Part shown: one piece after another, positions 35,740 through 63,720 of the stretch
Position numbering within the stretch: the first letter of the stretch is position 1
Layout: each line of letters opens with the position of its first letter
Source: Pecten maximus
Lineage: Eukaryota
NCBI RefSeq assembly: GCF_902652985.1
Contig: NC_047022.1
Span: 5,022,001 to 5,086,000, forward strand
Length of the DNA: 64,000 bases
Reading direction: 5' to 3'
Translations under genes and position numbers: made by a program
The notes under the pieces: generated by a model
Database searches by the model: none
The model's input: only the letters and a program-made list of their open reading frames with translations
What the model was told of the DNA's origin: nothing

Positions 35740-36835
35740 TCACGATGTCGGATTTTCTGCAGAAGTCTTAATTTTCTCTCGTTTAAAACAGTCCTTGTAA
35801 AACGATCTGACACGATTTGTACACGAAAATGATAGAGTAATCATAGCTCCCTGCAGATTCGACAGCACTTCAAAAACTAAAAGAAGTACATCGGACTGAG
35901 ACATTATTGCAGTAATTCCTATAATCCAGCTAAACCCCATAATTGTTGATATTTTCATGAAGACTATCATTTTGGACTTGTAACCTTCATTCTTTCTGAT
36001 TTGCTGAAAGTTTGAAGATCTCTTAGTTCAGAATTAAAGCGATATGGAAAGAGAAACATGAAAACAAATGCGCCTAACAATGAAAAATGATGAGCAAATC
36101 CAACCCATTCACAAACATCAGTTGGAACTGCAAAGTTGGATAAAAGAAAGAAGCAGGTTTGGGCAAGAAGTAAGAATATAACAAGGACAATCAACAGATC
36201 GGTTTTTCCATCCCGGAAAAAGGGAATAACACAAAACTGAATCAGACAATAAATCATACAGACTATCGATATAGACGCACATGCTGTGTTTATATTACTT
36301 CTGTAGCTGTCCATAGTGTTATGATGTTGATAATCCACATGATATTTCGATAAAAACGTATCAATACCCAAACAGTAGTCTCCGTTCGCGAATACAGCAT
36401 CCATAGGTGAAATGGAAATCCCTTGCAGATGAAAGTACGGAAGTGATGTAACTTCACTGTTAGATTCGTTTCCACTATGCTGTAGTTTCACTGCAGGACA
36501 CGGCAAATCATTGTCGACGGATATCATCTCAAAAAGAAATGGTTTCGGGTTACGAACAGAAGTATTCGTCTTACAGGACATATTTTGTATATCTGCTTTA
36601 TGTCTAATAACGCTTCCATCTGTGTTTCTTACAGAGAAGTTATTGAAATATGCTGCTGTCCACGAACTTTCAGATTCGAGCTTATCACCAGCGAGTATAA
36701 GTCCTTTGATATGCTGGTATATATGAATTACAGAGCAAACTTCTTCTGTATCAGTTGTTATCCCCGATATGATATCTGGTTTCCTAAGAGAACCCGCATT
36801 ATACAGTAGAAACGACCCCGTACGAAATTAAAGGC
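35740..36835 (-). pseudogene. Partial tandem pseudo-copy of the receptor's exon 2, with ~240-bp internal deletion and frameshift
   Basis: ORFs 35967-36581 and 35740-35970 match the 37027-38406 protein (MISVDNDLPCPAVKLQ..., KIST.MGFSW, SNLQGA). ERMKVT is joined directly to the pre-TM6 segment out of frame. Confidence 0.9.
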
Positions 36836-37026
36836 ATATTGTCATCACAATGTGTGGTGAACGCCTTAATCCGCCAGAAAGGAAAATTAAACAACAGGTA
36901 GTAACCAGCACAATCAGACCTGAAAATTAACACTTCTTGATCAAAACCACTTCAGGGTCATTTCAGGCAAATATGAGCTGAAATCTAGTTGTGAAACTTT
37001 TGTCGAATTTGTGAAGAAGAAAAATC

Positions 37027-40000
37027 TCAAGATCTCGTACTTTCAGCTGACGAATTATTTTCGACTCGTTGAAAACAGTCTTTGTAAAATGACCTAACTC
37101 GATTCGTACACGAAAAAGAAATTGTAATGAATGCTCCTTGCAAATTTGAAAACACTTCAAAAACTAAACAGAGTATATCGGACTCAGACAGTATTGCAAC
37201 AATTCCAATAAGCCAACTAAACCCCATAACTGTTGATATTTTGATTAAGACTATCGCATTAGACTTAGTTGAATTGGCGAAAATTGATGTAGATGATACA
37301 TAGCGAATAATACAAATAAACAAAGTGGCGTTCCCACACAAAATCAAAAATACTGGGATAACGAAACCAAATAATACGACGTATGTTTGTGTAATAAAAC
37401 AGAAATGTCCACCATACCATTTCTCTGTAGGTGTTAGAATTATGTTTGTAATTCTAATACTGATAATGACAAATATAGGTAAGGTAACACCAACCAATAT
37501 GTATCTAACTGTAACCTTCATTCTCTCTGATCTGCTGAAAGTTTGAAGATCTCTTATCTCAGCATTTAAGCGATATGGACAAAGAAACATGAAAACAAAT
37601 GCACATAACCATGTGAAATGATGAATTATCCCAACCCATTCACAAACATTATTTGCAATTTCAAAATGAGACACGAAAAAGAAGCAGATTTGGGCGAGAA
37701 GTAAAAACAATATAAGGACGAGTAACAGATCGGACTTTCCTTCCCGTAAAATAGGAATGACACAATACTGAACCAGACAATAAATCATACAGATTATCGA
37801 TATAGACGCACATGCTGTGTTTATATTACTTCTGTAGCTGTCCATAGGGCCGTGCTGTTGATAATCCACATGATATTTCGATAAAAACGTATCGATACAT
37901 AAAAAGTAGTCCCCGTTCGCAAACACAACGTCCGAAAGAGAAACAGACAGCCCTTCCAGATGAAAGTCAGAAAGTGATGCATGTTCCATCTCAACTTCGC
38001 TGTTAGATCCGTTTTCGCTATACTGTAATTTCACTGCAGGACAGGGTAAATCATTGTCAACGGATATCATCTCAAGAAGAAATAATGGGTCACGAAGGGT
38101 AGCATTTGTTCTACATGACAAATTATTTGTACTCGCTATGTGTTTCATAACGCTACCATCTGTGTTTCGTACCGTGAAGTTATTGAAATATTGTGCTGTC
38201 CACGACCTTTCAGATTCGAGTGTATCACCAGTGAGTACAATTCCTTTCACGTGAAGATATATATGTATGACAGAACATACTTCTTCTGTATTCCATGTTA
38301 TCCCCGATATTATATCTGGATTTCCAAGAGACAGCGTATTATATTTTAGTCGCGATCCGGTACTATTCCTTAAAGCTGTCATCAAAGTGTCTATTATATT
38401 TCGCAAGCTTTGATATAACGTTCTGTCAGCTTTAGAATCTTTATTTACCTCAAACAGGAGCTCTAGTACGCAACCGTCACTTTTAAAATGTATATCAACA
38501 CATTCTCCACCGGATGGTTCTGAACGGGCGGGGCAGTATAAACGACGACAGCCGATCTGATAAAATTAAAACATGATAAGTATGTACAATTGCGTAAAGT
38601 TCATATAATCTGATAAATTAGATACATCTTATACTGGATAATGAATAAAAAACTGTGTTATACAGCTGTTTCTTCATGTAAGTACTCACCATTGATACAA
38701 TATATGCAACGAATACAATGCAATTCTCAAAACGAGAAACCGATAAAGCATTTTTCAGGAAAGTAAAACAAGATACCCATGTTCATATGAGTATCAGTTT
38801 TAACAGTAGCGTAGGACAATGATATCCATGATATTATCCCGTTTTTAGTATAAATCCACTAAGAAATTGTTTTCCAAAACATCAGTATAAGTCATCAACA
38901 TGTAACTACTTGTCTAAAGTAACCGTTTCACCCCAAAAGTAATATTTTCCTCCATTTTGGTGGTTGGTCGCTATTGTAAAAAAATTCTTACGGGGGTTTG
39001 TCTGAACGCCGAAAATTTTATTGGAGATAAATTTGCTTTGGCATTGATTACAGTCTATCCCATTAAATAGGTCTCAGTCCCAAAAGTTCGGCCAATAAGA
39101 TTTTACAAAATTACCTAAAGAAGATACATTTATTCAATCATGCAACATTGTAGAGAGTGATACACCATTAGCTATCATGAAATTCGTATTAGATACTACA
39201 CAAATATGTCGTCTAACATGCAAACTATATTTCTGGATCTCCCTTACCCAAAAATGACCTGTCATAAATTTTATCACAATTTTTGCTCCTTATCGGTTAG
39301 CTTGTAAGCATCATGATGGTAGTTTGACTTTTATCAGAAATATTTTCACATAAACGTCTAAATTTCTTACCTCAGTGCATAATTCAATTTCTTCGTTTTT
39401 ACATTTCGTTTCTCTTCTTCGAAACACAGACGAAAAATCTATAAGGTTGCTCAGTGTGACTGCAAAACTAATTTTGTCTTGAAATAATAAGGCACACGAT
39501 GTGAAATGCAAAATCTCCTGATACTTAGGACCCTCAATATCAATAAGACATTGTAAAGTTCTGAAAAAGCGGAGATGTTGTCCTTGTTGAACAACTATTG
39601 GACTGACCACGCGATTCCGACAGGTTGAGTTCCTGGCTCTTTCAGAAATGTTTGTTATTATCCTGTAGTCGAATTCCTGATAGCAGTAATTTACTGTTAC
39701 ATCTTTAGGTGGTATGTAGCGGTAACTACAAAGGTCACTTTGGAGTTTAGTCATCATTACGTCAAAAACAGAAAGCGATGGTGGTTGGCTCTCTGGAAAG
39801 CATTCGATCTCCAAAAACCATGGTATATAATTTTGGACACCGTGACATTTGGCACAATGGTGATTTTTGAAAGTTAAATTGGTGCTAGTATCAACAACTG
39901 GCAATATGTCCCGAACATCAGTGTCCGTATACAGTTCACAGGCTTGCCTGGTATCTATGTCACTATCCCATGAATCAGGACAGGACGATATCATAAACGC

Positions 40001-40306
40001 CCCCTGTCTTAAGAAATTCTCTTTGAAAGAAATGATTTCACATGTTGTCACTTGAAAGTATTGACGGTGTTGATCTTCTTCACTCATTTCTTTCCAATCC
40101 CCTGTAATAGCTAGAGCATCAAAACAACAGTTATCATAGTAAACACACATATGGTCACAGCTACAGTAGACATTCTTTGGATCACTATCACAAGAGTAGA
40201 ATGTTTGCTTACAAATTTCAAGATGATGTAGAAAGTATTCTGTGTCTCCGCACACACACAACGTCATCGATATGCAGAAAAACCAAAAATCCGAAATCGA
40301 AATCAT
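37027..40306 (-). CDS. Somatomedin-B-like/Cys-rich ectodomain class B (adhesion/methuselah-like) 7TM receptor, ~821 aa; exons 40306-39371 and 38556-37027
   Basis: Signal peptide MISISDFWFFCISMTLCVCG and SMB motif CSCDHMCVYYDNCCFD. Phase-0 intron (GAG|gtaag ... ttttatcag|ATC) joins in frame. Seven hydrophobic helices with class B signatures (CEWVGIIHHFTWLCAFVFM, VMGFSWLIG, FSNLQGAFI). Confidence 0.9.
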
Positions 40307-41124
40307 TATAAAAAATATGAGATTCGTTAAATGTATTCGTTGTGTTATTTCTTACAATCGAATTATTTTTCAATTCGTTATGCCCAAAGAAAGTAATGAT
40401 ATATGTTTAAGATATGCAGTAGTAAGTGAGACGATGTCTGTATTCCCGTATTTATATCTATGGTCAATCAGAAATATTTTCAACATTTCTCGTTATATTG
40501 CTGAAGATACCACATGCGACACACATCAAACGAGCAATTAATAATCACTAAAGACAATACACGTCACATAAACCACAAGGTGGATATCGTCGGTTTCATA
40601 TTTCTTTAAAGAAAACTTACTTTTTAATATCCCTGGGCATAATAAGTCTAATAATATAAGCTAATATAAACGCCTATTCTTCTGCTTACTTGCACGTTGT
40701 TGTTCAAACCAAGACGCGGCTTTCTATGATAATAACTAAATATCATAATTGCGTAAATTATTATTGTATATATGCTATTATCTATTTTATAAATGATCAA
40801 ATAACTAGCTTCCACTGACGTGGATAAAAATGGTTCGTTTCCTAAATATTCACGAAATAGATATAAAAGTCGCTAATCGGAAATATATCTAGTCCATATG
40901 ATACGGGAAAACCACATTAGTATCATATGAATAGACATAGTAGAGTCATGAAAACGGCATAAAAGTTGACATGAATGTATTTCAGATACAAAAACAATTT
41001 TATAGTCAACCCTATCAACGCGAGGCAGACTGTCAGAAAAGAGGGCGGATTCATTTCACCCTGAAACGAAAGTAAATTAAAAAAATATTACCTATTTTGT
41101 AAGATACGCATTTCTGTCCATAAC

Positions 41125-43364: not shown

Positions 43365-45625
43365 TACGGAAGCCGAATAGGACCAATATAAAAAATAACT
43401 TAGTTGGTATCATTAAGAAATAAATAAATAATCTCGTATATACGAGTTTCTTTCTCGTATATACGAGTTTATTTTTCGTAATAACGAGTTTATTTCTCGT
43501 ATATACGAGTTTTTTTCTCGTATATTCGAGTTTAGTTCTCGTAATAACGCGTTTATTTCTCGTATTACATGTAACAGTGTGCTCCATCATGAAACTGGAA
43601 CTTATTTAGTACAACTCTACGGAATGGCAGTTGTAACCGACACAGTGGAATGTTACTCTTACAAGGGAATTAGTAACGATGATATACTGTCGTCTTTGGC
43701 GATTTCGTCTTACTGTGTTATTAGTAGATAGACACTGAAAAGGTTCTTATGACAGAACATTTGTCAAGAAGGAAAAACCACTCATATACATAGACATATC
43801 TACTTGTACTAACATTATATAGCTACACGTTTTAAGTCTGAAATTTAATTAATACATCTAGTGACGCTGTCTTCGACAGTGTAACCAGTAGCAACACAGA
43901 CATGTGTGAAGACTATGAAAGGCCGTTCATGTCAAAACCTAGTACCATTTAACGCGTTAAACATAACATTTAAGATTTAACGAGTCCTTTAAATACGTAG
44001 TAGATATATGAAACAAGGTATTCGATTGTTTCTGTTATGTTAGACGACTTTAAACGCGTTAAAACGAACAAAATTAAACGCGTTAGAATTCCAAGAAAAC
44101 ATCGTGTTAAGATTTACCGCTTTAAATGTGTTTAACACGTTAAATGCTAACGCGTTAAATGTATCTCGTTTTTGACATGAACGGCCTTTTATAGAATACG
44201 ATCTGGAAATGAGATTTGAGGTTGATGCATTGTATTCTATACAAAAACCCGCGCATGAAGGACACTACTTTCAAAAAGTAAAAGAAGTAATGTATTATAT
44301 AGATTCATAGTGTGATCTACAATAGACGTAATCTCTCCCGTATGAAAACCAGTGTTGGAACTTACAACGTACTTCTATAGATACAGATCAATTTTAGACA
44401 ATTCTTCAAGTGGATTTCAAACGTATCCATTGTTGTTTTGGCTAGTAAGAATTCAAATTCTTCAGCATTTATTAAACTTTTATCACTAGAAGTATTATAA
44501 GCGAAATAAATATTTGTGTCCAACAAACCTCATAATAAAGGATATAATATCAATGTAAGTCGTTACATATGTTGTATCGGCCCGTTATGATAGAACATGA
44601 TTCTAACGTTATACATGTTATATACGACCCGTTGAAATAGAAAATCACAAATTGTACATGCTATATACGACCCGTTATAATAGAATATTAGTAAGATGAT
44701 ACTCGTCGTATTTGGCCCGTTATAATAGAAAATAATTAAGATGTTACATAGTTGTATACTGCCAGTTTTAAAAGAAAATTATGGCCCTGGTTCCGGTAGC
44801 ACTAATTATTAACTTATTCACAAATATTACTCAAAACGTTTATCCAGCACTTACATGATTTTTGTCTAATTTGTATAAATTGCAGGCACGTGTTCACGTT
44901 TGTTTCTATATATTTTCTTTCTGGCGGCTCTGATTCCTTTAAATCTGTGACGTCACAGGTCATAGGTCACCGAAACGAGGTCAACGACTTTGGGCTTCAG
45001 GTGTGTTTTCGAGAAAAATTGCAATAACTCTAAAACTAAAGTCGTCATAAAAGTCGCACTTTCAGGATTTTTAGTTTCATCCTAAATTACATTTCATAAG
45101 CTTAATATAGCAAATCGTTCCGGGTACACTAGCTTATTATGTCGAACAACCTACTTAAAAGTTGTCTTCGCAACTTTTTTATCATATATCACACTAGCGA
45201 CTTAAATGAAGCTTCTATATCATAATATCGTTTTCATTATATCAGTTAAGTTGTTATGTGACTTAATTTATGTAAATTTGGTGATAACCGAATTTCCATA
45301 TCGCGATAACGAAAAAAAAAAGAACTAGCAAGTTAGATAGTTCAAACCAGAAAGAATCCCGTATATACGAGAAATAATCTCGTATATACGAGAAAGAAAC
45401 TCGTATATACGAGAAATAATCTCGTATATACGAGAAATAAACTCATATATACGAGAAAGAAACTCGTATATACGAGAAATAATCTCGTTATTACGAGAAA
45501 TAAACTCGTATATACGAGAAATAATCTCGTATATACGAGAAAGAAACTCGTATATACGAGATTGTTTATTCATTTTTTAATGGTACCAACTAAGTTTATT
45601 TTTTTCATTGGTCCTATTCGGCTTA
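43365..45625. mobile_element. Non-autonomous foldback-type DNA transposon with TACGG termini and 21-bp minisatellites inside the TIRs (IS3EU-like)
   Basis: TIR tacggaagccgaataggaccaat / attggtcctattcggctta. Flanks cattcc (43359-64) and cattc (45626-30). 21-bp arrays at 43430-43565 and 45355-45562. The superfamily call is from recalled TAYGG/6-bp-TSD rules and is unverified. Confidence 0.75.
43913..44194. mobile_element. 282-bp MITE nested in the foldback element
   Basis: TIRs ctatgaaaggccgttcatgtcaaaa / ttttgacatgaacggccttttatag, with multiple internal aacgcgtt palindromes. Confidence 0.75.
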
Positions 45626-45630
45626 CATTC

Positions 45631-47058
45631 TACGGAAGCCGAATATACGGAAGCCGAATAGGACCAATGAAAAAAATTAACTTAGTTCGTATCATTAAAA
45701 AATGAATAAATAATCTCGTATGTACGAGTTTCTTTCTCGTATATACGAGATTATTTCTCGTATATACGAGTTTCTTTCTCGTATATACGAGATAATTTCT
45801 CGTATTAACGAGATTATTTCTCGTATATACGAGTTTATTTCTAGTATATACGAGTTTATTTCTCGTATATACGAGTTTATTTCTCGTATATACGAGATTA
45901 TTTCTCGTATATACGATATTATTTCTCGTTATAACGAGATTATTTCTCGTATATACGAGTTTATTTCTCGCACATACGGGATCCTTTCTGGTTTTAACTA
46001 TCTAACTTGCGAGTTCTTTTTTCTCGGTATCGCGATATGGGAATTCGGTTATCACCAAATTTACATAAATCAAGTCACATTACAGCTTAACTGATATAAT
46101 GAAAACGATATCATGTTATAAAAGCTTCATTTAAATCGCTTGTGTGATATATAAAAGTTGCGAAGACAACTTTTAAGTAGGTTGATCGTCATAATAAGCT
46201 AGTGTACCCGGAACGATTTGCTATATTTAGCTTATAATTTAGGATGAAACTAAAAACTTTTATGACGACTTTAGTTTTAGAGTCATTGCTATTTTTCTCG
46301 AAAACACATCTGAAGCCCAAAGTCGTTGACCTCGTTTCGGTAACCTACATGACCTGTGACGTCTTAGGTTTAAAGGAATCAGAGCCGCCAGAAAGAAAAT
46401 ATACAGAATCAAACGTGAACACGTGCCTGCAATTTATACAAATTAGACCAAAATCCTGCAAGTTCTTGGTAAACGTTTTGAGTAATATTTGTGAATAAGT
46501 TAATAACAAGTGCTGCCGAAACAAGGGGCATAATTTTCTTTTAAAACTGGCAGTATACAACATGTAACATCTTACTTATTTTCTATTATAACGGGCCAAA
46601 TACGACGAGTATCATCTTATAACGGGTCGTATATAGCATGTATAACGTTATAATAGTGTTCCATTATAACGGGCCGTTACAACATATGTAACGACTTACA
46701 TTAACATCATATCCTTTATTATGAGGTTTGTTGGACACACATATTTATTTCGCTTATAATACTTCTAGTAATAGAAGTTTGAAATACAATTCATGCATGA
46801 TGTGAAATAAATGCTGAAGAATTTTAATTCTTATTAGCCAAAACAGCAATGGATACGTTGGAAATCCACTTGAAGAATTGTCTAAAATTGATCTGTATCT
46901 ATAGAAGTACGTTGTAGGTTCCAACACTGGTTTTCATACGGGAGAGATTAAGTCTATTGTAGATCACATTATGAATCTATATAATACATTACTTTTTTTT
47001 ACTTTTTGAAAGTAGTGTCCTTCATGCGCGGGTTTTTGTATAGAATACAATGCATAAC
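45631..47058. mobile_element. Second, inverted and truncated copy of the foldback element, forming a ~1.4-kb-arm palindrome with 44226-45625
   Basis: Reverse complement of 44226-45625 (e.g. gcgcgggtttttgtatagaatacaatgcat vs atgcattgtattctatacaaaaacccgcgc). 15-bp terminal duplication tacggaagccgaata x2. Confidence 0.9.
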
Positions 47059-47161
47059 TTTACTGTACGTGTGTATCGTCTTTTCACAAAAACCAGAGTA
47101 TCCAGAACTGTTCTTTTGTTAGTATGTTTATTTGAATATTAACTTTCGAATAAAATGACGA

Positions 47162-47434
47162 TCGGATGTCGATATTAACTCTGATAAGACGGAAAATGAC
47201 GTCACCCCATCTGATGAAAAAAGCAAGTCCAAGGAAAAGCCCAATATAGAATCAACCAAACATGGTCAATCTACTGAAAAACCGCTCAGAGAGCAGACTA
47301 CGTTACTCAGGCGGAGCATGCGCAGAAAAGCAAAGAGTCAGCGAGGCGGAAAACTTGTTTTGAAGACCACGCCTCCTCGATTTGAGAACAACCTTAAACG
47401 AACGAAACGTAAGTGGTTGTCATTCAAGATATAA
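47162..47434 (+). pseudogene. Small acidic-then-basic ORF immediately upstream of the polymerase; start codon out of frame
   Basis: Open frame SDVDINSDKTENDVTPSDEK...LLRRSMRRKAKSQRGGK...KRKWLSFKI*. ATG at 47155 is one base out of frame. The stop lies 6 bp before the next ATG. Confidence 0.5.
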
Positions 47435-47440
47435 AACGCC

Positions 47441-50400
47441 ATGAAATAGGACATACACCAGACGAGAAACATGTCAGTGCAATCTTTTGATGATTTGCTC
47501 AATTCGGTGTCCAGAGGAGACGAAAAGGCCATACAAACAGTGAGCAACTTGAAAAGGATATTGAACTCTATTGATGTATCGTCTACGAAAAAAAACCAGA
47601 AATGAAAGCAACGTACTTAAAGACAAAAATGGACAAAATGTGACGTCTTGCAATGTGTGTGGGAAACAATGTCTTACCGAACAGAAATTTAAGTTACACA
47701 TGAAAACACATTATCGACAGTTAAAGTGCACAGTGTGTGGAAAAGAGTTTAAACGGTCAAACGACTTAAACAGACACCTGAATTCACACAAAAATCAGAG
47801 TTCTTACAAATGTCACGTGTGCGGCAAGACCTTCACGAGGAAATATAACATGAAAGCACATGTGACCAAAAAGCATGGACAAACTGGTGGAGATCTCTCT
47901 AGAACTAATCAACCTCCTTCTAGAATTCGATTACCTGAGCCTTCTAGTACTAAATCACCACCACCTTCCGCTATACAGTCGCCGCTGCCGGGACCTTCCG
48001 GCATACAGTCGCCGCTGTCGGGACCTTCCGGCATACAGTCGCCGCTGTCGGGACCTTCCGGTATGCAGTCGCCGCTGCCGGGACCTTTCGGTATACAGTC
48101 GCCGCTGCCGGGACCTTCCGGTATACAGTCGCCGCTGCCGGGACCTTCCGGTATACAGTCGCCGCTGCCGGGACCTTCCGGTATACAGTCGCCGCTGCCG
48201 GGACCTTCCGGTATACAGCCGCCGCTGCCGGGACCTTCCGGTATACAGTCGCCGCTGCCGGGACCTTCCGGTATACAGTCGCCGCTGCCGGGACTTTCCG
48301 GTGAACAGTCTGAACCATCTGTGTCAGGAGAACATACCTATTCCGATGATGTGAGTTGGGGAGGAAATGCTAATGTTAGAAACATATTTCCAAATGTCAA
48401 TGATAATAGTGACCTACTCACTTTTTTTTGCAAACTCCAAAACGGAAGTGATTGAACATTTAAAACGATTGTGCGAGAGGTTGAATGGAATTAAGTGGTA
48501 TCTTAACATTCGTGTGTCACTGGAAAAGGAAACTAGAGAAGGTAATGTAGTACAGACCATCCCCCATTTCTTGAGTAAAGCATACGTATTGATGCCAAAT
48601 GAATCCGATTTAGAACACAATATCATTACAGCTTATCAGAAAATGTTTGCCTCGTTTGACGAATTCGTTCGAAAAGGGACTGCTTGGGTACTCAAGAAAA
48701 TTATCAAGTTAGAAATACACGTTGCAAATTACTCACCGTTGAGTGGTTCCTCCTACGTACCGACTCCATATACTTTCAAACGTCATAAAATAGTAAATAT
48801 CTTTAATCGTGACGAAAAATGTTTCTTGTGGTCCATTTTGGCCTCTCTCCGCCCCACCGATACGCTACCCGAACGCGTCTTTCATTATGAGGAGTAGGAA
48901 AGCGAATTAGATATGACAGGTATCAGGTATCCTGTCTCCGTCTCTCAAATCGACAAATTTGAGAGACAGAACGGTATATCGGTAAATGTGTTTTGACTTG
49001 AGGAAAAAACCATTTATCCCATGTATGTGACAAAGATAAAACAGTCCCGTCATCACGTCAATCTGCTCTTTTTACAAGAAGGTGTAAAAAGACATTACTG
49101 TCTCATTTCCAATTTAAACATGTTTTTGAGCAGAACCAAAAAAGGAAATAATCTGACACATTTTTGTCAGCATTGTCTGCAAGGTTTCACCAGTAACAAA
49201 CTGTTAAACAGACATGTGGAACTGTGTATCGCTCACAAAACACAGCGAGTAGAATTCCCCAGTGAAGACGATGCTCTCTTATTGTTTGGAGATTTTCATA
49301 AACAAATGAAAGCACCGTTCATCATTTATGCCGATTTGAAACATTTGTAGAGAAAATGGATTCTTGCGAGCCAAACCAAGACCATTCAAGCACGACCAAG
49401 AATACAAAATTCGAACCCTGCGGGTTTGGATATCAAGTCGTGTGTATGGAAGATAGATATACCAAACCGCCCGTCATTTACAGGGGGGCCGACGTTAGCA
49501 AAACCTTCTTGGAATGCATCATAGAAGAAGAAAAACAAATCAAAGATATTTTAGGTCACCCAGAGCCGCTAGTCATGTCTCTTCAGGACGAGCAGTCTTT
49601 TATGGAGAGTACTCGATGTCACATCTGTGGTAAACATTTCACAGACGGAAGTACTGTGGTGCGAGACCACTGTCATTTGAGTGGGAAATTTCGCGGAGCC
49701 GCTTATAACGAATGTAATTTGAAGTACAAATATCCCACTTACGTTCCTTGTGTATTTCATAACCTAAAGCGGTTCGATGCACACATTCTGACGGAAAGTC
49801 TGGGCAAATTTAAAGACCGCGAAATCAATTGTATTCCTAACACTACGGAACAGTATATTTCGTTTAGTCTGGGCGATATTAGATTCATAGATTCGTTTCA
49901 ATTCATGTCTCAGAGTCTGGAGACTCTGACTGAAAATCTTGCCAAAGAGGGTTTGATTAAATTCAATAACTTCTCTAAGGCATTCCGAATCAGAGGCCAA
50001 ATTGCTACTTAGAAAAGGTGTATATCCCTACGAGTACGTAGACAGTGCCGATCGATTCTCGGAACAAATGCTCCCTGCAAAAGAGAAATTCTATAGTTCG
50101 TTGAGTCGATCACACGTGTCAGATGCCGATTAGGCGCATGCACATACCGTGTGGGAGAAACTGAACATTCGAGACCTCGGTCAGTATCACGACCTCTACC
50201 TCAAGACGGACGTGCTACTATTGGCCGATGTCTTTGAGAACTTCAGAAACATGTGTCTCGATTATTATGGGTTAGATGAGCTCACTACTATACCAGTCCA
50301 GGTCTGGCTTGGAGTGCAGCCTTGAAAATGACGGGAGTGAGGTTAGAACTCATCAGAGATCCGGACATGTATCTGTTCTTTGAAAACGGAGTGAGAGGTG

Positions 50401-51838
50401 GTGTTAGTATGATATCAAACAAATACGCTCAAGCTAACAATCCTTACATTCCAGAAATGTATGACTTATCTCAACCACACTCGTACATCATGTATACGGA
50501 CTGTAACAATTTGTACGGGAAGGCCATGTCGGAACCATTACCCGTGGGAGGGTTTCGTTGGGTTGACAATACACAAACATTTGACATAACCAAAGTATCC
50601 AAAGACGGAGACCTTGGTTACGTAATGTAAGTAGATCTGGAATATCCAGACGACTCCACGACAATCATTCTGATTACCCCCTCGCGCCGGAACGCAAAAG
50701 AACTTCAGACAAAGAATTGTCACCCACCAGCAAACAGCTGTGGAAGAGTTTACATCCTAGCCTCAAACATACCGATGATAAATTACATGGACGCGTGCCG
50801 ACAGAAAAACTCATTCCCACGTTAGAAAACAAGACCAAATATATCTGCAATTACAGAAATCTACAGTTATACGTGGATTTGGGTCTAAAAGTCACTAAAA
50901 TCCATAGAATCCTAGAATTCAAACAAAAACCTTGGTTACGTCCATATATACAATTCAACACGTCCAAGAGAGCGTCATGTAAGAACGAGTGTGAGAAAGA
51001 TTTCTTTAAACTCATGAACAATGCCGTATTTGGCAAGACGATGGAGAACGTGCGGTCTAGAGTCGACATCAAGCTGGCACACACAGAAACGAAACTAAAA
51101 AAATACGTGGCAAGACCTTCTTTTCAAAGATTCACCATCTTTAACGAAGACTTGGTAGCCATTCAGAACGATAAAATCAACCTCGTTTTGAACAAACCCG
51201 TATATGTGGGACAGACCATTCTAGATCTGTCGAAATGTATCATGTACGAGTTTTACTACAAGTACCTAAAACCCAAATATAAAGATGGTATAAAATTACT
51301 CATGACAGATACAGACAGTCTATTGTATCGAGTTCAATGTTCAGACGTGTATGATGACATGTATCAAGACAGACAGCTGTTTGATCTGTCAAATTATCCG
51401 ATCGAGCATTGCTATCACGATACAAAGAACAAAAAAATACCCGGGTATTTCAAAGATGAAACGGGTGGTGAACCCATTGCAGAGTTTGTAGGACTCCGTG
51501 CAAAAATGTACTCGTACGTGTACGCCGTGAGAAATCGGATGGAGATAGAAAATCTCCTTGTGATATGGAACGATATGAAAGAAAAGCAGGTAGATAAGGG
51601 TATCGCAAAAGCGACCATCAGTCGTGATCTAAGACACGAAATCTATAGAGAGTGTTTATTCGAAGACAAAATGAAAATGTGTAAAATGAATTCGATTAGA
51701 AGCGACAAACATCAGCTGTATGTTTATGCCGTCAACAAGTCGGGTCTGTGTGCCTTCGATGACAAGCGTTGGGTCTTACCCAATCGGTGCGATACGCTTT
51801 CGTTCGGTCAATACAGAATAAATAAAACAGAAGTGTAG
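47441..51838 (+). pseudogene. C2H2 zinc finger x3 + Pro/Ser/Gly repeat + protein-primed DNA polymerase B (vOTU-like and endonuclease VII-like domains), ~10 stops/frameshifts
   Basis: C2H2 fingers at 47649-47876. NRDEKCFLWSILA and RHYCLI (vOTU-like Cys/His). FIIYAD (ExoI), CHICG...RDHCHLSGKFRGAAYNECNL (EndoVII-like), FHNLKRFDAH (ExoII), [17 protein letters not shown] (ExoIII), YTDCNNLYGKAM (A), KLMNNAVFGKTMEN (B), MTDTDS (C), RAKMYS. Confidence 0.95.
47964..48302 (+). repeat. 30-bp coding minisatellite, ~11 copies (PSGIQSPLPG)
   Basis: ccttccggtatacagtcgccgctgccggga repeated, open in several frames. Confidence 0.97.
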
Positions 51839-51929
51839 TTTTACATATATTTATTCAGATGTCGGACTGAAATCGTCATGAAAATATTGTAAATAAATAT
51901 CATACATGTAGGTAATATAGTATAAGGGA

Positions 51930-52420
51930 TATATTTAATTTAAAAAGAAAGTTTCATTAAGTATCAAAACTGATTCGTAAAGGATTTAAGAAATAAAATA
52001 TTTTAAGATGTTGATTTAAAAAGAAAGTTACATTAAGTATCAAAATTGAATCGTAAAATATATAAAAAGAAATATTTAAAGTTGTTGATTTAAAAAGAAA
52101 GTTTCAGTATCAAAACTGAATCACAAAGTATTTCAAAAAGAAATATTTTAAGTTGTTGATTTAAAAACAAAGTTTCATTACGTATTATAACTGAATCACA
52201 AAATATATAAAAAAAGAAATATTTAAAGTTGTTGATTTAGAAAGAAAGTTTCATTAAGTATCAAAACTGAATCAGAAAGTATTTAAAAAAATATTTTAAG
52301 GTGTTGATTTAAAAAGAAAGTTTCATTAAATATCAAAACTGAATCACAAAGTATTTAAACAAATATTTTAAGGTGTTGATTTAAAAAGAAAGTTTCATTA
52401 AGTATCATAACTAAATAAAA
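51930..52420. repeat. ~72-bp AT-rich tandem repeat, ~7 copies, followed by scattered aagtatgagaggcatca repeats to ~52790
   Basis: Unit ~gatttaaaaagaaagtttcattaagtatcaaaactgaatcacaaagtatttaaaaaaatattttaaggtgtt. Confidence 0.9.
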
Positions 52421-53025
52421 GTTTTAAGTATGAGAGACATCACCTGAAAAATTAAAGTATGAGAGGCGTCATCTGTATATAAAGATTACATGGTGGTTAT
52501 ATAGTTTACATATAAGTTGTAGTTCATTTTCAAAATATTTCAATATACTTTTTTAAGTTAATTGTTGTATTTCGTTAAGAGGATATTCCAATGTACCATT
52601 TGTTATAAGTTAACAAAATTATTTAAAGTTATATACCTCAACGAAAATTAGTTGAAATCTTAAACGAAAAGTATGAGAGGCATATCATTTATAGATTCAA
52701 AAGTTTTAAGTATGAGAGACATCACCTGAAGGTTGAAGTATGTGAGGCATCATATGAACTTTCAAAAGTTGAAGTATGTGAGGCATGATCTATATACTAT
52801 ATTACAGTGTTTCATTAAATTAGTTTCAGATTGTTCTAAAAAAAAGTTTTCATTATTGTATTCATTTACAATTCAATATTTTATGTTGTTATTGTATAAC
52901 AATCCAGTTCACTTATGTTTCAATGTTTTATAACATTGATTGCATTATGTACTCATTGATGTATTCATTGTTCAATATGAATGTTATTAATAAAATCATA
53001 GTTAAGCAAACACAGTTGTTCTTAG

Positions 53026-53385
53026 TCAATCCTCTCTACATTCTGATATACAATCCAGCATCGACTCTTTATACAGTCCAAAAATGGCTTCTACTTTACA
53101 GTAGCATCGATGCCCCTTCAGCCTTCTCATATGGGAACGAACTCTCTCATATCTTACTTCTACTATACTATCGATAAAGAATCGAGTTTCGTTTCTTAAT
53201 TCGGGATAACGTCTCCTTATAGCTGCGGCGATTCTACGAAATATGACGGATCTACAGATGTCGACCTCGTGACAACCAAATAAAATACAGATAAAACATA
53301 ACTTTGTAGCAGAGTAATATTTATCTCTTAATATCACATCCCTGTTTGAATCTATGACAGATTTAGCGAGACCTTTTTGATACAT
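53026..53385 (-). CDS. Orphan 119-aa Cys/Arg-rich ORF, probably an element-encoded accessory gene
   Basis: ATG-started, uninterrupted, GC-richer than flanks. Contains CFIC...GCH and HRCYC motifs, convergent with polB. Confidence 0.55.
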   Translation of the reverse strand: MYQKGLAKSVIDSNRDVILRDKYYSATKLCFICILFGCHEVDICRSVIFRRIAAAIRRRYPELRNETRFFIDSIVEVRYERVRSHMRRLKGHRCYCKVEAIFGLYKESMLDCISECRED

Positions 53386-53997
53386 ATTTAATATTTGAAG
53401 GCTGTCGAGACGTCGGTTTTACTGTAAATTTGACCAGTTTTTGATCTCGTGTGAACATAGGTGATGTGAATTTCAATAAAAATTTGTATTTTTGAAATTA
53501 TGCGTTGGGTTATCTCCCATTAACGTTAGTTTGCAAAAATGACTAAACGCACAGATATGATTATGTAAGCTTTTTCGTCCACAAACATTCACATTCAGGA
53601 TTTTGATAGCGGTAATTTGATTGGCTGATGCGAAAGGTCACCCCTTATGGGATGTTGTCAGATCCTATGTATGCGGAGAGTAATGGAGCGACAATGGATG
53701 TGCATATCAATGAGATTGGAGAAGATGTCATCTGAATTATTGAAATCAAGGTAAGTTTTGTACAACAGTTTTAGTGTTAATTTGAATTTTAGATTGGGCT
53801 TTTTCACTTGTTAACTTGTTTCATATGTATATTCATTCTTAGAAATGTTTTTATTTACTTTTGGAAATTCTTGGAGGCATTCTTTTTGTTCTTATTTTAA
53901 ACGCTCTGCTTTATTACTGTGTAACTAGATAATGGTCCAGGCAATTTTTTCTTGGAATACTGATTTACAGTAAGTGGTAATATAAATTCAAAAACTG

Positions 53998-54222
53998 ATG
54001 ATAGTTGAAATTTATATACCAAACCCTGCAAAGTTAAGGTTAGCCTTTTCCATGCTTCTGCATCAAAATATTCATTGTGAAGTTTTTACATCATGGCAAG
54101 ATGGAAGGCCTACATTTGGATTTAAAACACCATCTCTTGAAGTTGCCGTGGAGATAACCAGTTTGTTTCTTTCATGTGGGATAGTATTCGAGTGTGAGTA
54201 TACTACAAAAACACAAATATGA
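53998..54222 (+). CDS. Orphan 74-aa ORF
   Basis: ATG-started, alternating beta/alpha-like globular composition (MIVEIYIPNPAKLRLAFSMLLHQNIHCEVF...). No recognisable family. Confidence 0.4.
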   Translation: MIVEIYIPNPAKLRLAFSMLLHQNIHCEVFTSWQDGRPTFGFKTPSLEVAVEITSLFLSCGIVFECEYTTKTQI

Positions 54223-57200
54223 CAGACAAGACACAATTACAAGCATGTATATACACTGTATATATAATCAAAGACGCGTAAAAAGACAAACAAGCCTATG
54301 AACAAAGAGACACACAACAAAGCATGCTTGGCATTTAGACACTCATGTATGGACAATCATACCAGATTATCTCCATAACATGATTTTTGTATTGCCTGCG
54401 ACGAAAGGTCGCAATAGCAAGACTATGGTGCTCGTTTTCAGCCAGCGGTATCATCATTTCACTTTTAAAAGTTTAGCATTTAGATCCGTTGCTCAAAAAG
54501 CAAACTCCAACTTAAACCAAACTTGGTATATATAATTATATATACTTATATCAAATAGTAGACACCTAAACACAACCATCATTTACAAGATATCTACCAG
54601 ATTTTACTGTCCAGGGACTCTGAAAATTAGGGATGCTGGTAAACTGCATGAACTTTAAAGTTTTGCATTTAGTTCCAATTGTACATGAAATATTAGTGCT
54701 ATTCCAAACAAAAGTGGAATAGTGTTACATTTTAGTTTGGACATCTGAACCCACCAAGTAGATTACACACATTTGATTGGTTTGATGTATTTTTGAGGTA
54801 ATTCTCTGTGGCTTGTTCCATACACTTATGAGTACTGTAAAACATCAGAAGATTTTTTCTTTTCTCCTTTTAAAGAATTATGATTTTCTTCAAAATCTCA
54901 TTATCATTAGTATTTACCTTAAAATATCTTTAATATTTTGAATAATTATATATTCTTTAGCCATTGTAATTATTATTTTCCACAAAATGTCACCATCAAT
55001 CATAACTGTATTAAATTTTCGTTAAAATATATTATGATTTTCTTCAAAATCTCATCATTAATATTTGTTTTAATTACTCATTGTAATTATTATTAATGAG
55101 TTTATTTGAAGGTGGTGTAAGTAGGATGTCGTAATGGTTACTATATATGTTTTGTCAAGTTTTTCTCAGTGAGAAAAATGTATCTATTTCCAATTGTAGG
55201 AATAGCAGTTCTGATCTTCAAAAGCTGGAGCCGACGGCAGCAAGGACGATACATCTAACGAGTCCGAGAAGATTTGGATATCTGTAAGTATTGGACTTAA
55301 AAGGTTATATGAAATTAAATCATTTATGATTTTGTACAATTTCTATTATGAAATTTTTGTGAGTTGTCTCCCTTAGACCAATGACAAAATATCTTGTGTT
55401 GCCTTTAACAAGTATTTTTTTTCCTATTCACAGTTACAATTGGAGATGATGAAGATATGTTAAATTAGATTTGAATCAGGTGGAAATCCAAAAGATAATT
55501 GGTTACATTCTTTATAACATGTGGGCTAACTGTGTCCAGTTTCAAGGACTATTTCTCTAGTAATGTCTATATTTTAAAATTGTAGAGGAAATACAGATGG
55601 AGGAGTGGAGATCGGGTATGTTAGAATTCCACTCTTCATGTTAATTATAGGTTTGATGCTACCTTTATCACCAAACAGGGAGACTAACGTTTTTGTTGTC
55701 AATACTTTCTGTGTGTTATTTATTTTTTGTGATGATTTAAATAGCTGCTGTTGTTTAAATTGTAGGCCCCAGAGAACTTGTGGCCTCCCTCTCCACTTCC
55801 ACAACCTCGAACAGGTCATCAGGTAAGTATGTATCTTGTTTATATTTGCATATGTTGAAATGGAATCGTTGCTTCACTTGGTAGTATATATCCAATACAA
55901 TGCAAAAAGTTTCTAAAAAAAATCTTTTAAATTGTAGTTGAGGTGGAAAAGGAGGGCATGACTACTACCTACGCAGCCAGAATTGAACTAATTAAATGTT
56001 TTGAATTTAATTTTTATATTTTTTTTTTACAAATCATTACTCAGGTGAATGTTTTTCAGTTTTTTTTTGTAACGTGTCTTTCAATGTGAAAATTAATTAT
56101 ATATTTTTTTATACATTGAATTAATACTCGGTGTGTTTTTGTTTTGTTTGTCTGTAACTGTGATAATGATTTTCTTAAAGTGTTAAAAATATTTTCTTGT
56201 GATTCTGCAAATTTGTTACATATTTATATTGTAGTAATTCGTTTTTTCCCCATGTTTAACTAGATATTTCTGTGATTTTACCAATGTTTACATGATTATA
56301 CCAATGTTTAATTTATACATTTTTATTTTTGTAATTAATTATATTTATGTATGTCCATTTACGGTGATGTGCAAAATAAATGTTTTGATTCGAAATCAAT
56401 CGTTTTTATTATTCTTAATTAGTTTACTTATACGTTTCAGAAATTCCACCCCTTTTACAAACATTCAAACACATATATGTTGCTTTCGGATGAATCGTGA
56501 CCGTGTTAATGTGGTATACAAAAGTTAACCGTGTGGTCTGGTTCACGCTCTTGTGGAAATGGTTTACGCCGTTGATCTCGTTACTAGTTTTACGGTGTAT
56601 TATTTGATCGTTACTTGACAATTTTCCTGAAGGATTCAGTCGTCATCTTCTAACGTGTTGACATTTGCTCTCTCTAATATCACTTTCACTTATGTGTCTA
56701 CTTTGCTCAGTCAGATAGCAGCTTTTTCTAAAGGAATGATTCAATACTTTGCTCTTTCAGATAACTATTTCATAAAAAGACTTTCATCATTGTATACATC
56801 AATGATACATTTAAGTTTTTTAATTACCATGACTTTATCGTTGAAAGCATATTCGTTGATTTTATAGCTCATTTCAATATATTGATCGATGAATTATTCG
56901 AAATGGTTGACATCACTATTAGATTTTTCTTAACATTTCGATGTCACATTTCTTCTATCGTTAAAAAATAAAGTACGGACACTTCTCTAATATCCTCCAT
57001 TTATTCTTACAACAGTCTTTTAATAATCATATCGAGACTATCTGTGTCTTCATTAATACCAAATATATAAGGCTGGTACAATTTTCATATATATATAGAT
57101 CAATTTTTGGATTGAATTCATAACTAGGGCTCGACTCGTAAATAAAAATTATCCTGTGGGTAAAGAAACTGTTGTTATTTCTTATATGTGTCTTCTATTG

Positions 57201-61148: not shown

Positions 61149-63720
61149 GAGGCCGCGGTGGCAGAGTGGTTAAGGTGTCCCGACATTAGGTATTCACCAC
61201 GGATACTCAATAGATGATGATAAAATCTGGAGAGAAAAAATACTCAAACTGCCTGCAGGTATGGAAAACTAGAAATCTTACAATTAAGGGGAAAATTTTA
61301 ATTATCAAATCATTAATCATATACTCATTTGGATATGAATTAGAAGCACGGGGCATTCCTGAAAAATATCTAAACGAAATTAACAAGCTGATTTGGAATT
61401 ATATATGGGATGGAAAAACTCATCAACTAGAAAGGAAACTATGCTGCCGTAATACAGATAATGGAGGTATGGGGATGGTAGATATAGAGAATTTCCTTCA
61501 ATATCAGCAAATAAAAACTTTTCATAAAATAGTAAACACAAAAATGGAAAACTGGAACTCCATAGGTAATTTTTTTCTTTCTAAATTAGACACCAAGTAT
61601 GCAATTAAAAAATGTCATTGTTCTTGTTCGGATCTGAATGGTATAGACATTAATAGATATCTTCCCAAATTCTACTCTAGTAGCTTAAAAGCATGGTCAA
61701 AGTTTCTTGCCCAAAAACAAATTCATGAAAAGAATGGTGTACTAAACCAATTCCTTTTTGGAAATACCCATATTCAGTTTCAAAGCAAACCACTATTAAT
61801 ACAGTCTTTCTTGAAAAGCAGTATATGTAAAATATCTGATATCTGGGATGAAGAAAAACAGGATTTCTTAACAAATCAACAAATATTTCAAAATATTAAA
61901 TATAAACGAAACTGGATAGCAGAAATATATAAAATAAGAAAATCTATTCCTCAGAATTTTATCAGAATACTGAGAGGCATTCAGGTATTGGACAACCAAC
62001 TCTCCAATTAGACCAGACATGTATATACAAATTGTTAATGGAAAATTAAAATGTGCTCGACTATAAAAAACAAAATAAAAATTCTGAAGACAAAAGACAT
62101 TAAAATGAATATGCTGCAACAACTATTGGGTACAAATACAAGACAGAAATCTGAAACAAAATGGGGAAAAGATTTACAAAAGAGTTTTAATTGGGGAAGT
62201 ATATGGACCAACTGTAGAGGCGACTTAACCGCCACAGATAACAAAATAAAAGAGTTCAACTGGAAATGTGTACACAGAATAATATATACAGAGTACAAAC
62301 TTAGTCTCATGGATAGATCTAATGGCATCTGCCATATGTGTAATAACCAGATAGAAACTCAAAGTCATTTATTTTATCATTGCACTTTCGCCAAACAATT
62401 ATTTCAGTTATTGCAAAATAATATATTGACAATATTACCTGATATAGAACTTAATGAAGTAAATATTTTAATAGGCGAATCAGAAACGGGGAATACTCAA
62501 CTTACAAATACTTTAGCCTTTACAACAAAATGGGTCATATGGAAAGTCAGAAATATTATGAAATATCAAAATAAGAGAATAACTCCAATGTCTGCTTTTC
62601 TTGATAATCTTCAATTATTCCTTAAGGTCAACAATAGAAAAGTAAACAAATCAACACTTTTAATTAATCTTTTGAGCAAATACAGTTTACTAAGAAATAA
62701 TTTGGTTGTGTAGTAGAGCTAGTAGATGGTAGATCTACTATACATGTATGTGTTTTAACAAACTTTATTATATGTGCTTTGTGTATTACTACTAGATTTA
62801 CTGTATTGTAATCGGCCTTATTAATTTTGTAAACAATATAAATAAATATACTAACGTATATGTAGGCCTATATTGTCATGGACATACGATTAGACGACAC
62901 GGGCTTGTCTGGTCTTGGTGGTATGTCTAGCTATTTAGGCTAGGCATGCCGCTAAAGAGAGACGGGTCCCTGTGGTATGATCGTATGCACCAAACGGGCA
63001 AGTGTGTGTTTATAGGAATGTAGAGAATACCTGTGCGAAAGTCGATTCTGTGAGTGTGGTCTGTTATCCTATCTGTTGTTCGTTTTTCTTTTCTTTTCAA
63101 CAGCTTTATTCAGTACATTCACTACATCGTAAATTCACCGTTATATGTCAAACTGCAAACTTCCTACTAACGCAGATTAAAATCCTTCAAACACTTTTTT
63201 GACTCGGAATAATACTTACAATCTTATAGAGAAAACAAATACCCGGAAATATTTTTATTTATATTTCTGGTAAAATATAATTAATGTTGAAGAAAATAAT
63301 AACAAATATAACGATGTGTAAGTGTGTTATGATACTGTATGGCGAATGAGTCTCCTCCAGCGTGTGGACAATTTTTTGTCAAATGTCTTTTTTTTAATAA
63401 AACTTGTTTGAACCTTAAAAAAATGTTATACCATTGAATTATATATCATTCATAGACACTTGACAATTGATTTTTATTTTGACAACAATGTATATTTCTT
63501 TTTGTAACTCTTCAATTTGGAGGAAATAAAGAAATAATAATGTAAAAAAAGGTGTTACGACACTTTAACACTGGCCCTCCACCTCTGGGGTGCGCGTTCA
63601 AAACCTAGGTGGGGCAGCCGGTGGTTTTTCTCTGGGTACCGATTTCCTCCACCTCCAAAACCTGGCACGTCCTTAAATGACCATGGCTTTTAATAGGAAG
63701 TTAAACAAAAACAAACCAAA
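61149..63720 (+). mobile_element. tRNA-derived SINE split by a LINE insertion (61149-61185 + 63549-63720)
   Basis: Head ends ...taaggtgtcccgaca and resumes aaggtgttacgacactttaacactggccc... after the LINE. Confidence 0.9.
61186..63548 (+). mobile_element. 5'-truncated L1/Tx1-clade LINE (ORF2 C-terminal part + 3' UTR + A-rich tail), 14-bp TSD
   Basis: WKTRNLTIKGKILIIKSLI...IWDGK...NGGMGMVD (post-RT) and FNWKCVHRII...CHMCNNQIETQSHLFYHC (zf-RVT), with one frameshift near 62010-62050. TSD aaggtgtcccgaca (61172-85) / aaggtgttacgaca (63549-62). Confidence 0.92.

Follow-up and report, generated by a model that had tools for sequence, protein, structure and literature searches.

In the Polinton family represented in the window, a 64,000-nucleotide stretch of the Pecten maximus genome (contig NC_047022.1), the protein-primed DNA polymerase (pPolB) is encoded in one frame with a leader of three C2H2 zinc fingers, and at the level of sequence the finger recognition residues and the terminal repeats of the elements covary between families. 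We consider it reasonably probable that the fingers of the polymerase precursor bind repeated hexamers near the element's ends, bring the terminal protein (TP) and the polymerase to the origin in this way, and are subsequently cleaved away at a QxGG motif.

The pPolB gene lies on the forward strand at positions 47471 to 51838 and comprises about 1,455 codons, and natural open relatives of 1426 aa exist. Its start is the ATG at 47471; at 47441, the beginning given in the preliminary description of this DNA, only two codons precede a stop. A short helical N-terminal segment (47471 to 47605; modeled as three helices in a natural open relative, 73% identity) leads into three C2H2 fingers at 47649 to 47876 (47649 to 47711, 47727 to 47789, and 47811 to 47876; Pfam zf-C2H2, E 2.8e-13), and the helix residues –1, 2, 3, and 6 of the window family's three fingers are TQKL, RNDR, and RYNA. 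Immediately behind the last finger stands QTGG (47880 to 47891), a predicted protease site identified by motif comparison across leaders. It is followed by a 30-bp minisatellite (47963 to 48310), a local expansion encoding a disordered Pro/Ser/Gly linker (pLDDT below 50 in the equivalent stretch); the 11 units of PSGIQSPLPG described earlier agree in number with its 11.6 copies, though the exact unit occurs only 5 times. The TP domain, with a little-finger/PAD fold (48345 to 48729), is split by a slip near 48421, and the vOTU protease domain (48770 to 49130; catalytic Cys codon 48820, His 49093) has two stops inside. An internal C2HC zinc finger, whose C, C, H, and C are invariant in the alignment, lies between vOTU and exonuclease (49165 to 49227), and the exonuclease domain (49327 to 50280) bears an EndoVII-like insertion at about 49617 to 49721 (Endonuclease_7 match, E 4.5e-6). 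The polymerase domain (50493 to 51838; motifs A, B, and C at 50493, 51008, and 51308) is 87% identical to the natural open relative. The three fingers, the vOTU Cys/His motifs, the exonuclease insertion, and the polymerase motifs were all found where the preliminary description had placed them.

The gene is interrupted by six frameshifts (near 47587, 48421, 49337, 49982, 50278, and 50652) and four in-frame stops (48895, 48994, 50131, and 50628). The slips noticed earlier at an A run and a T run are among these six, but the gene is more broken than first described, and homopolymer runs account for only two of the six frameshifts. Because the other four slips lie outside homopolymers and stops are present as well, decay rather than assembly error is favored as the source of the breaks. 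Contigs from three DNA runs disagree with the window sequence at each of the six slips and at three of the four stops shown, but as mixtures of the family's copies they carry little weight for this particular locus. No expressed match for pPolB was listed in the RNA data.

The finger-polymerase fusion is genuine. A search of the same genome with the TP piece returned 82 matches, many in open frames of more than 1,200 codons, and natural open copies run in a single frame of 1272 to 1426 aa, as had been reconstructed from the broken copy. Among the 16 natural ORFs of this genome whose leader has at least 40 aa, 15 carry the fingers in frame with TP-vOTU; the sixteenth, the G000:C11 copy, is slipped in the linker. 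For a natural open relative, structure models contain three fingers and a disordered linker as well as two folded domains. Its TP matches the little fingers of Pol eta and Pol IV (Z 8.3, with an rmsd of 3.2 over 108 aligned residues, and 8.1), and its vOTU matches OTU proteases, many of them related entries (Z 7.8 to 7.1; the top match at 7.8 has an rmsd of 3.4 over 97 aligned residues), bearing out the earlier assignment to Polinton pPolBs with TP and vOTU regions. Across alignments of 93 and 99 sequences, the catalytic Cys and His of the vOTU never vary. The fingers have the classical fold, in which positions –1, 3, and 6 hold the base-reading residues, and resemble DNA-bound finger arrays by structure match. 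The terms Kruppel-type and host-like, used earlier, are not supported, since TGEKP occurs in none of the 108 inter-finger linkers of the 98-leader clade defined below.

The window element is an ordinary Polinton with a protein-primed PolB carrying TP and vOTU, and the copy in the window is an inactive fossil. This right-half remnant (47159 to about 57308, forward strand) is 96% identical to the G000:C11 copy over 47159 to 55688, and the G000:C374 copy extends the match to 57308. The left arm (integrase, capsid genes, protease, and ATPase) is missing and both terminal inverted repeats are lost, the family's terminal 100 nt having no match anywhere in the window. The 3′ part of a small ORF of about 120 aa (47159 to 47434, forward strand), which carries QRGG at 47339, precedes pPolB; beyond it lie a 72-bp tandem repeat (51938 to 52427), common to the G000:C11 copy, and a small right-arm ORF on the reverse strand (53026 to 53418) with counterparts in sister families. 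A 2.8-kb palindrome at 44225 to 47055 was considered as the hairpin end of the element and dismissed, being an unrelated multi-copy repeat (56 genome matches) that is unlike the family's ends. The G000:C11 copy is 16.6 kb long, has inverted repeats, ends in AGTAG, and is flanked by a 6-bp target duplication (C13 likewise); it encodes an integrase, a penton-sized ORF, a 160-aa ORF, a capsid protein, an adenain-like protease, an ATPase, and the 120-aa ORF before pPolB. In a sister element the integrase matches Pfam rve (E 4e-13) plus a chromodomain, and an integrase is present in the 96% identical G000:C11 copy. DJR-like clusters score 0.98 for the capsid module, and Peptidase_C5 and Pox_A32 were found; the best PDB matches of the protease are the ASFV and adenovirus proteases, both weak, and the penton is assigned by position and size alone. 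PF03175 matched none of five full proteins at E 0.01, gave weak matches in pieces of the window, and is listed for some relatives. The preliminary description had overlooked the C2HC finger after the vOTU, the QTGG at 47880, and the fact that the gene sits in the right half of a full Polinton.

The spread of finger leaders was assessed in a pool of 299 proteins (natural ORFs of this genome, 120 of 239 matches, the 150 best of 10,008, and virus-contig loci), 179 of which have the full core plus a leader; C2H2 fingers are present in 86 of these 179. The closest named relatives of the window pPolB, among the matches listed, are bivalve. The suggestion that the fusion may mark a distinct mollusc lineage is rejected: in a set seeded with insect sequences (120 of 516 matches), 45 of 93 leaders have fingers, one snail and one anemone pPolB have them too, arthropod-dominated Atlas clusters join zf-C2H2 with Endonuclease_7, and the EndoVII-like insertion is frequent among insect relatives as well. 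In a tree of 231 cores, from which 41 unnamed insect-set entries were omitted, the window relatives belong to a 98-member clade (support 0.993); 80 of its members have fingers, as do 48 of 61 clusters at 60% identity. The minisatellite, earlier taken as the defining linker, is rejected as a conserved part; a tandem repeat occurs in only 5 of the 98 leaders, 4 of them from this genome. Viral contigs gave no match with a single query and 10 distant loci with an alignment, none of the six scored having fingers; a metagenome scan gave no match and NCBIfam none.

Evidence for a function of the fingers comes from the ends of the elements. Target hexamers were predicted with the finger recognition code, which was adjusted after the ends of five families had been seen; predictions were fixed before the termini of further families were located, and sites were counted in the terminal 150 nt. 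Six of nine such advance predictions succeeded, with 2 to 5 sites per terminal 150 nt versus 0.2 to 0.6 in shuffles, and internal windows reached the site counts of these six in only 0 to 1 of 31 to 66 cases. Permutation of the finger-terminus pairing returned 24 of 362,880 arrangements, or 12 of 40,320 when each finger set was represented by a single family. The other three predictions (L039, L044, and C7) failed exactly, the commonest repeat there being one base off. A tenth family, C2, whose prediction does not count among those fixed in advance, has 7 sites. In a tight clade (73 to 86% TP identity), position 3 of finger 2 changes together with the site (Asn with GAG, Ser with GTG, and His with [G/T]GG), and across three distant families Gln, Asn, and Thr at position –1 pair with GGA, GGT, and GGG. 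The first site lies at nt 26 to 33 from the element end and points outward in seven families: at nt 26 to 31, towards the end, in 5/5 families of the tight clade and at nt 28 in two further ones. In the window family, whose termini were read after the fact, the hexamers are CTGGCG (nt 28) and, deeper inside, CAGGCA/T; both deviate by a single base from the predicted nAGGCG.

These comparisons draw on termini from one genome and on related families. The termini of L039, L040, L041, and L057 are known from one end only; L056 duplicates the finger set of one of the five families seen before the predictions; and the end of L047 is doubtful, similar sequence forming tandem repeats elsewhere, and was excluded from the final test. 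Termini for the further predictions L136, L113/L102, L126, and L118 were not found in this genome, and an earlier test on 300-nt termini of three families had a mixed outcome.

Physical binding of the fingers to DNA and a role in replication initiation are likely on this covariation, which gives the earlier guess of an origin-binding factor a footing in sequence. The precursor would unite zinc-finger leader, terminal protein, vOTU protease, exonuclease, and polymerase in a single chain; the leader would dock it about 26 to 33 nt inside each end, and TP could then prime. In adenovirus, the host factors NFI and Oct-1 recruit pTP-Pol to the origin, and the adenovirus inverted terminal repeat likewise has factor-binding sites just inside the genome end. 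There TP is a separate protein and host factors are borrowed, whereas here the DNA-reading domain is built into the precursor and changes from family to family along with its site. The main alternative grants the binding of terminal repeats but gives it another role than the start of replication, the fingers acting as a freed regulator of transcription or as a tag for packaging or integration. Terminal sites do recur as far as 140 nt inside, where TGACGTCA and TATA-like motifs stand close by, 65 of the 98 leaders contain basic NLS-like stretches, and cleavage at the predicted site would release the fingers as a separate protein; against it, the fingers are joined to the priming protein, and the near-fixed distance and direction of the first site in seven families suit the positioning of an initiation complex, and we regard this alternative as unlikely.

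The proposed removal of the leader is suggested by the QxGG motif, which occurs in 46 of the 98 clade leaders versus a mean of 1.2 and a maximum of 6 in 500 shuffles, at 60 times its density in the remaining protein, in 26 of the 61 clusters formed at 60% identity, and downstream of the last finger in all 40 of 40 cases. It fits the consensus of the adenovirus protease, (M/I/L/N/Q)XGG↓X (passages of PMC6048507 and PMC4246237), and is a predicted protease site on that account. Scored as (M/I/L/N/Q)XGG↓X or XGX↓G, an adenain-type site is present in 59 of 98 leaders versus 9.1 in shuffles and in 33 of 37 leaders of the nearest subclade; it is absent from 32 of the 80 finger-bearing clade leaders and from the insect-set leaders. 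Two putative core proteins share the motif: of the small upstream ORFs, 16 of 18 contain [QML]xGG, as do 10 of 12 pre-capsid ORFs. It is lacking in all 12 capsid, all 13 penton, and all 16 ATPase ORFs and present in 1 of 9 protease ORFs. The earlier guess that the finger array is protease-released gains sequence evidence in this way. The precursor pTP of adenovirus is trimmed by the adenovirus protease and resembles the present one in being a terminal-protein precursor with GG-type sites at which Gln is allowed at P4 (passages of PMC4246237). By this analogy, the element's adenain-like protease would cleave at QxGG, most likely during particle maturation, and TP would stay on the genome.

It is also conceivable, but decidedly improbable in our view, that origin binding holds and the leader is cut by the polyprotein's own vOTU or is never removed. 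OTU enzymes cleave after Gly-Gly, and the vOTU Cys/His are invariant; moreover, cleavage may fall to the vOTU or to a helper protease, because short elements of 7 to 10 kb that have only pPolB, ATPase, and integrase (in four of them neither a protease nor a capsid gene was detectable) retain leaders of the QxGG type. Many leaders have no site. What favors the adenain-like protease instead is that the motif also stands on two small non-polymerase proteins of capsid-coding elements and that its P4 varies among Q, M, and L, as for adenain; the short elements, too, keep a packaging ATPase and could borrow a helper's protease. Finally, that the fingers are a functionless passenger from a host gene, matching the termini by chance or shared ancestry, accords with the variability of the leader across pPolBs (in other clades it consists of Rho_N-like domains or repeats, or is missing) and with the three failed predictions, but it is largely refuted by the permutation test of finger-terminus pairing and disfavored by the retention of fingers in most clade members and clusters, the lack of TGEKP linkers, and site changes that follow residue changes within the tight clade, and is highly improbable.

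The Polinton pPolB has been described as TP-vOTU-EXO-PALM with a TP of little-finger/PAD fold (Krupovic et al. 2024; parts of PMC11071308/PMC11161782), and the window protein shares this domain order, the TP fold, the vOTU Cys/His, and a nuclease insertion in the polymerase. The covered parts of that work describe no leader before TP, contain neither "zinc" nor "C2H2," and propose vOTU cleavage between TP and vOTU, whereas the candidate site here lies upstream of TP. Adintoviruses likewise combine OTU-PolB, adenain, hexon, penton, FtsK-type ATPase, and rve integrase, flanked by inverted repeats (Starrett et al. 2021; PMC8502044); in the part of that article covered, neither a finger leader nor a cleavage motif is described, and its supplement text, where sequences are possibly not searchable, is likewise without matches. 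The pPolB1 and pPolB2 with HNH or VSR insertions resemble the window protein in having a nuclease insertion and in counting molluscs among their hosts, and the covered text mentions no zinc finger (Jeong et al. 2023; PMC10748475). Within the portions covered of PMC11161782, PMC10748475, PMC8502044, PMC8097293, and PMC13215967, zinc fingers are absent or unrelated. Full-text literature searches found no relevant paper linking Polinton/Maverick pPolB or termini with zinc fingers, and no Polinton origin-binding factor; older Polinton papers, Repbase, and most supplements may mention the leader. The fusion itself is already common in databases, for example as "C2H2-type domain-containing protein." The finger-terminus covariation and the GG site after the fingers were not found in print, and novelty rests on these and not on the fusion or the minisatellite.

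The finding bears on how Polinton polymerases locate genome ends. A broader view, for and against which we find the balance even, is that animal Polintons of a wide clade bring along a programmable origin reader of their own: fingers on the terminal-protein/polymerase precursor that would read family-specific repeats within the terminal inverted repeats, coevolve with them under the classical finger code, keep the replication of coexisting families in one genome separate, and be removed by the capsid protease as particles mature. If true, this would explain the coexistence of many families in one genome, and a family's end motif would be predictable from its polymerase sequence, providing a natural set of finger-site pairs. 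The GG motif common to three proteins would likewise offer three candidate substrates for the never-characterized Polinton protease.

The Polinton remnant of the window is truncated at position 47159, and this point adjoins a foldback repeat at 44225-47055 whose 1.4-kb arms are 84% alike overall and enclose a centre of 21-bp tandem repeats. The repeat belongs to a multi-copy family with 56 matches in the genome, and part of its centre recurs at 43365-43565. Two further features of the window were labelled by inspection: host ORFs at 35967-40351 (minus strand) that look like a somatomedin-B/adhesion-GPCR-like gene and have a partial duplicate in tandem, and ORFs at 61214-62713 (minus strand) similar to the 3'-terminal part of a LINE reverse transcriptase, with an apparent zinc knuckle at the C terminus.

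Elsewhere in the same genome, several different Polinton families are clustered at G000:C17:14.5-15.06 Mb and C13:2.2-2.9 Mb, and these clusters include a partial duplicate at 16.5-kb spacing. The elements on G000:C11 and C13 carry, in the left arm near the left end, small Cys/His ORFs that look like BIR (IAP) domains by inspection. Short elements of 7.4-9.9 kb bounded by TIRs (L083:7824-L050:7739, L053:2873-L093:2216, L129:4899-L130:2282, L146:979-L155, and L142) have three genes only: those for the finger-pPolB, an integrase, and a packaging ATPase, and the ATPase in many cases has its own zinc finger at the start. No capsid, penton, or protease genes were found in them by tblastn, and they are candidate helper-dependent Polintons. 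The ends of one such family (L146:979, L144:691, and L055 near 6700) begin with GATGAATAG rather than AGTAG.

Two candidate cleavage sites are located in pPolB. The leader contains QTGG (47880-47891); mature SUMO likewise has QTGG as its C-terminal motif, and SENP proteases and adenain belong to one clan, so host SENP proteases are remote candidates for cutting here. At the TP/vOTU border, a conserved Y-x-P-L-x-G-(S/G)-S pattern (48730-48753) is matched in 146/231 sequences. Self-cleavage by vOTU is proposed in PMC11071308, and this pattern is a candidate site for it.

In other pPolB clades (P0070, P0080, P0105, and relatives), Rho_N-like helical domains or PIPAPRT repeats replace the fingers before TP; the pPolB leader is a swappable slot for nucleic-acid-binding domains.
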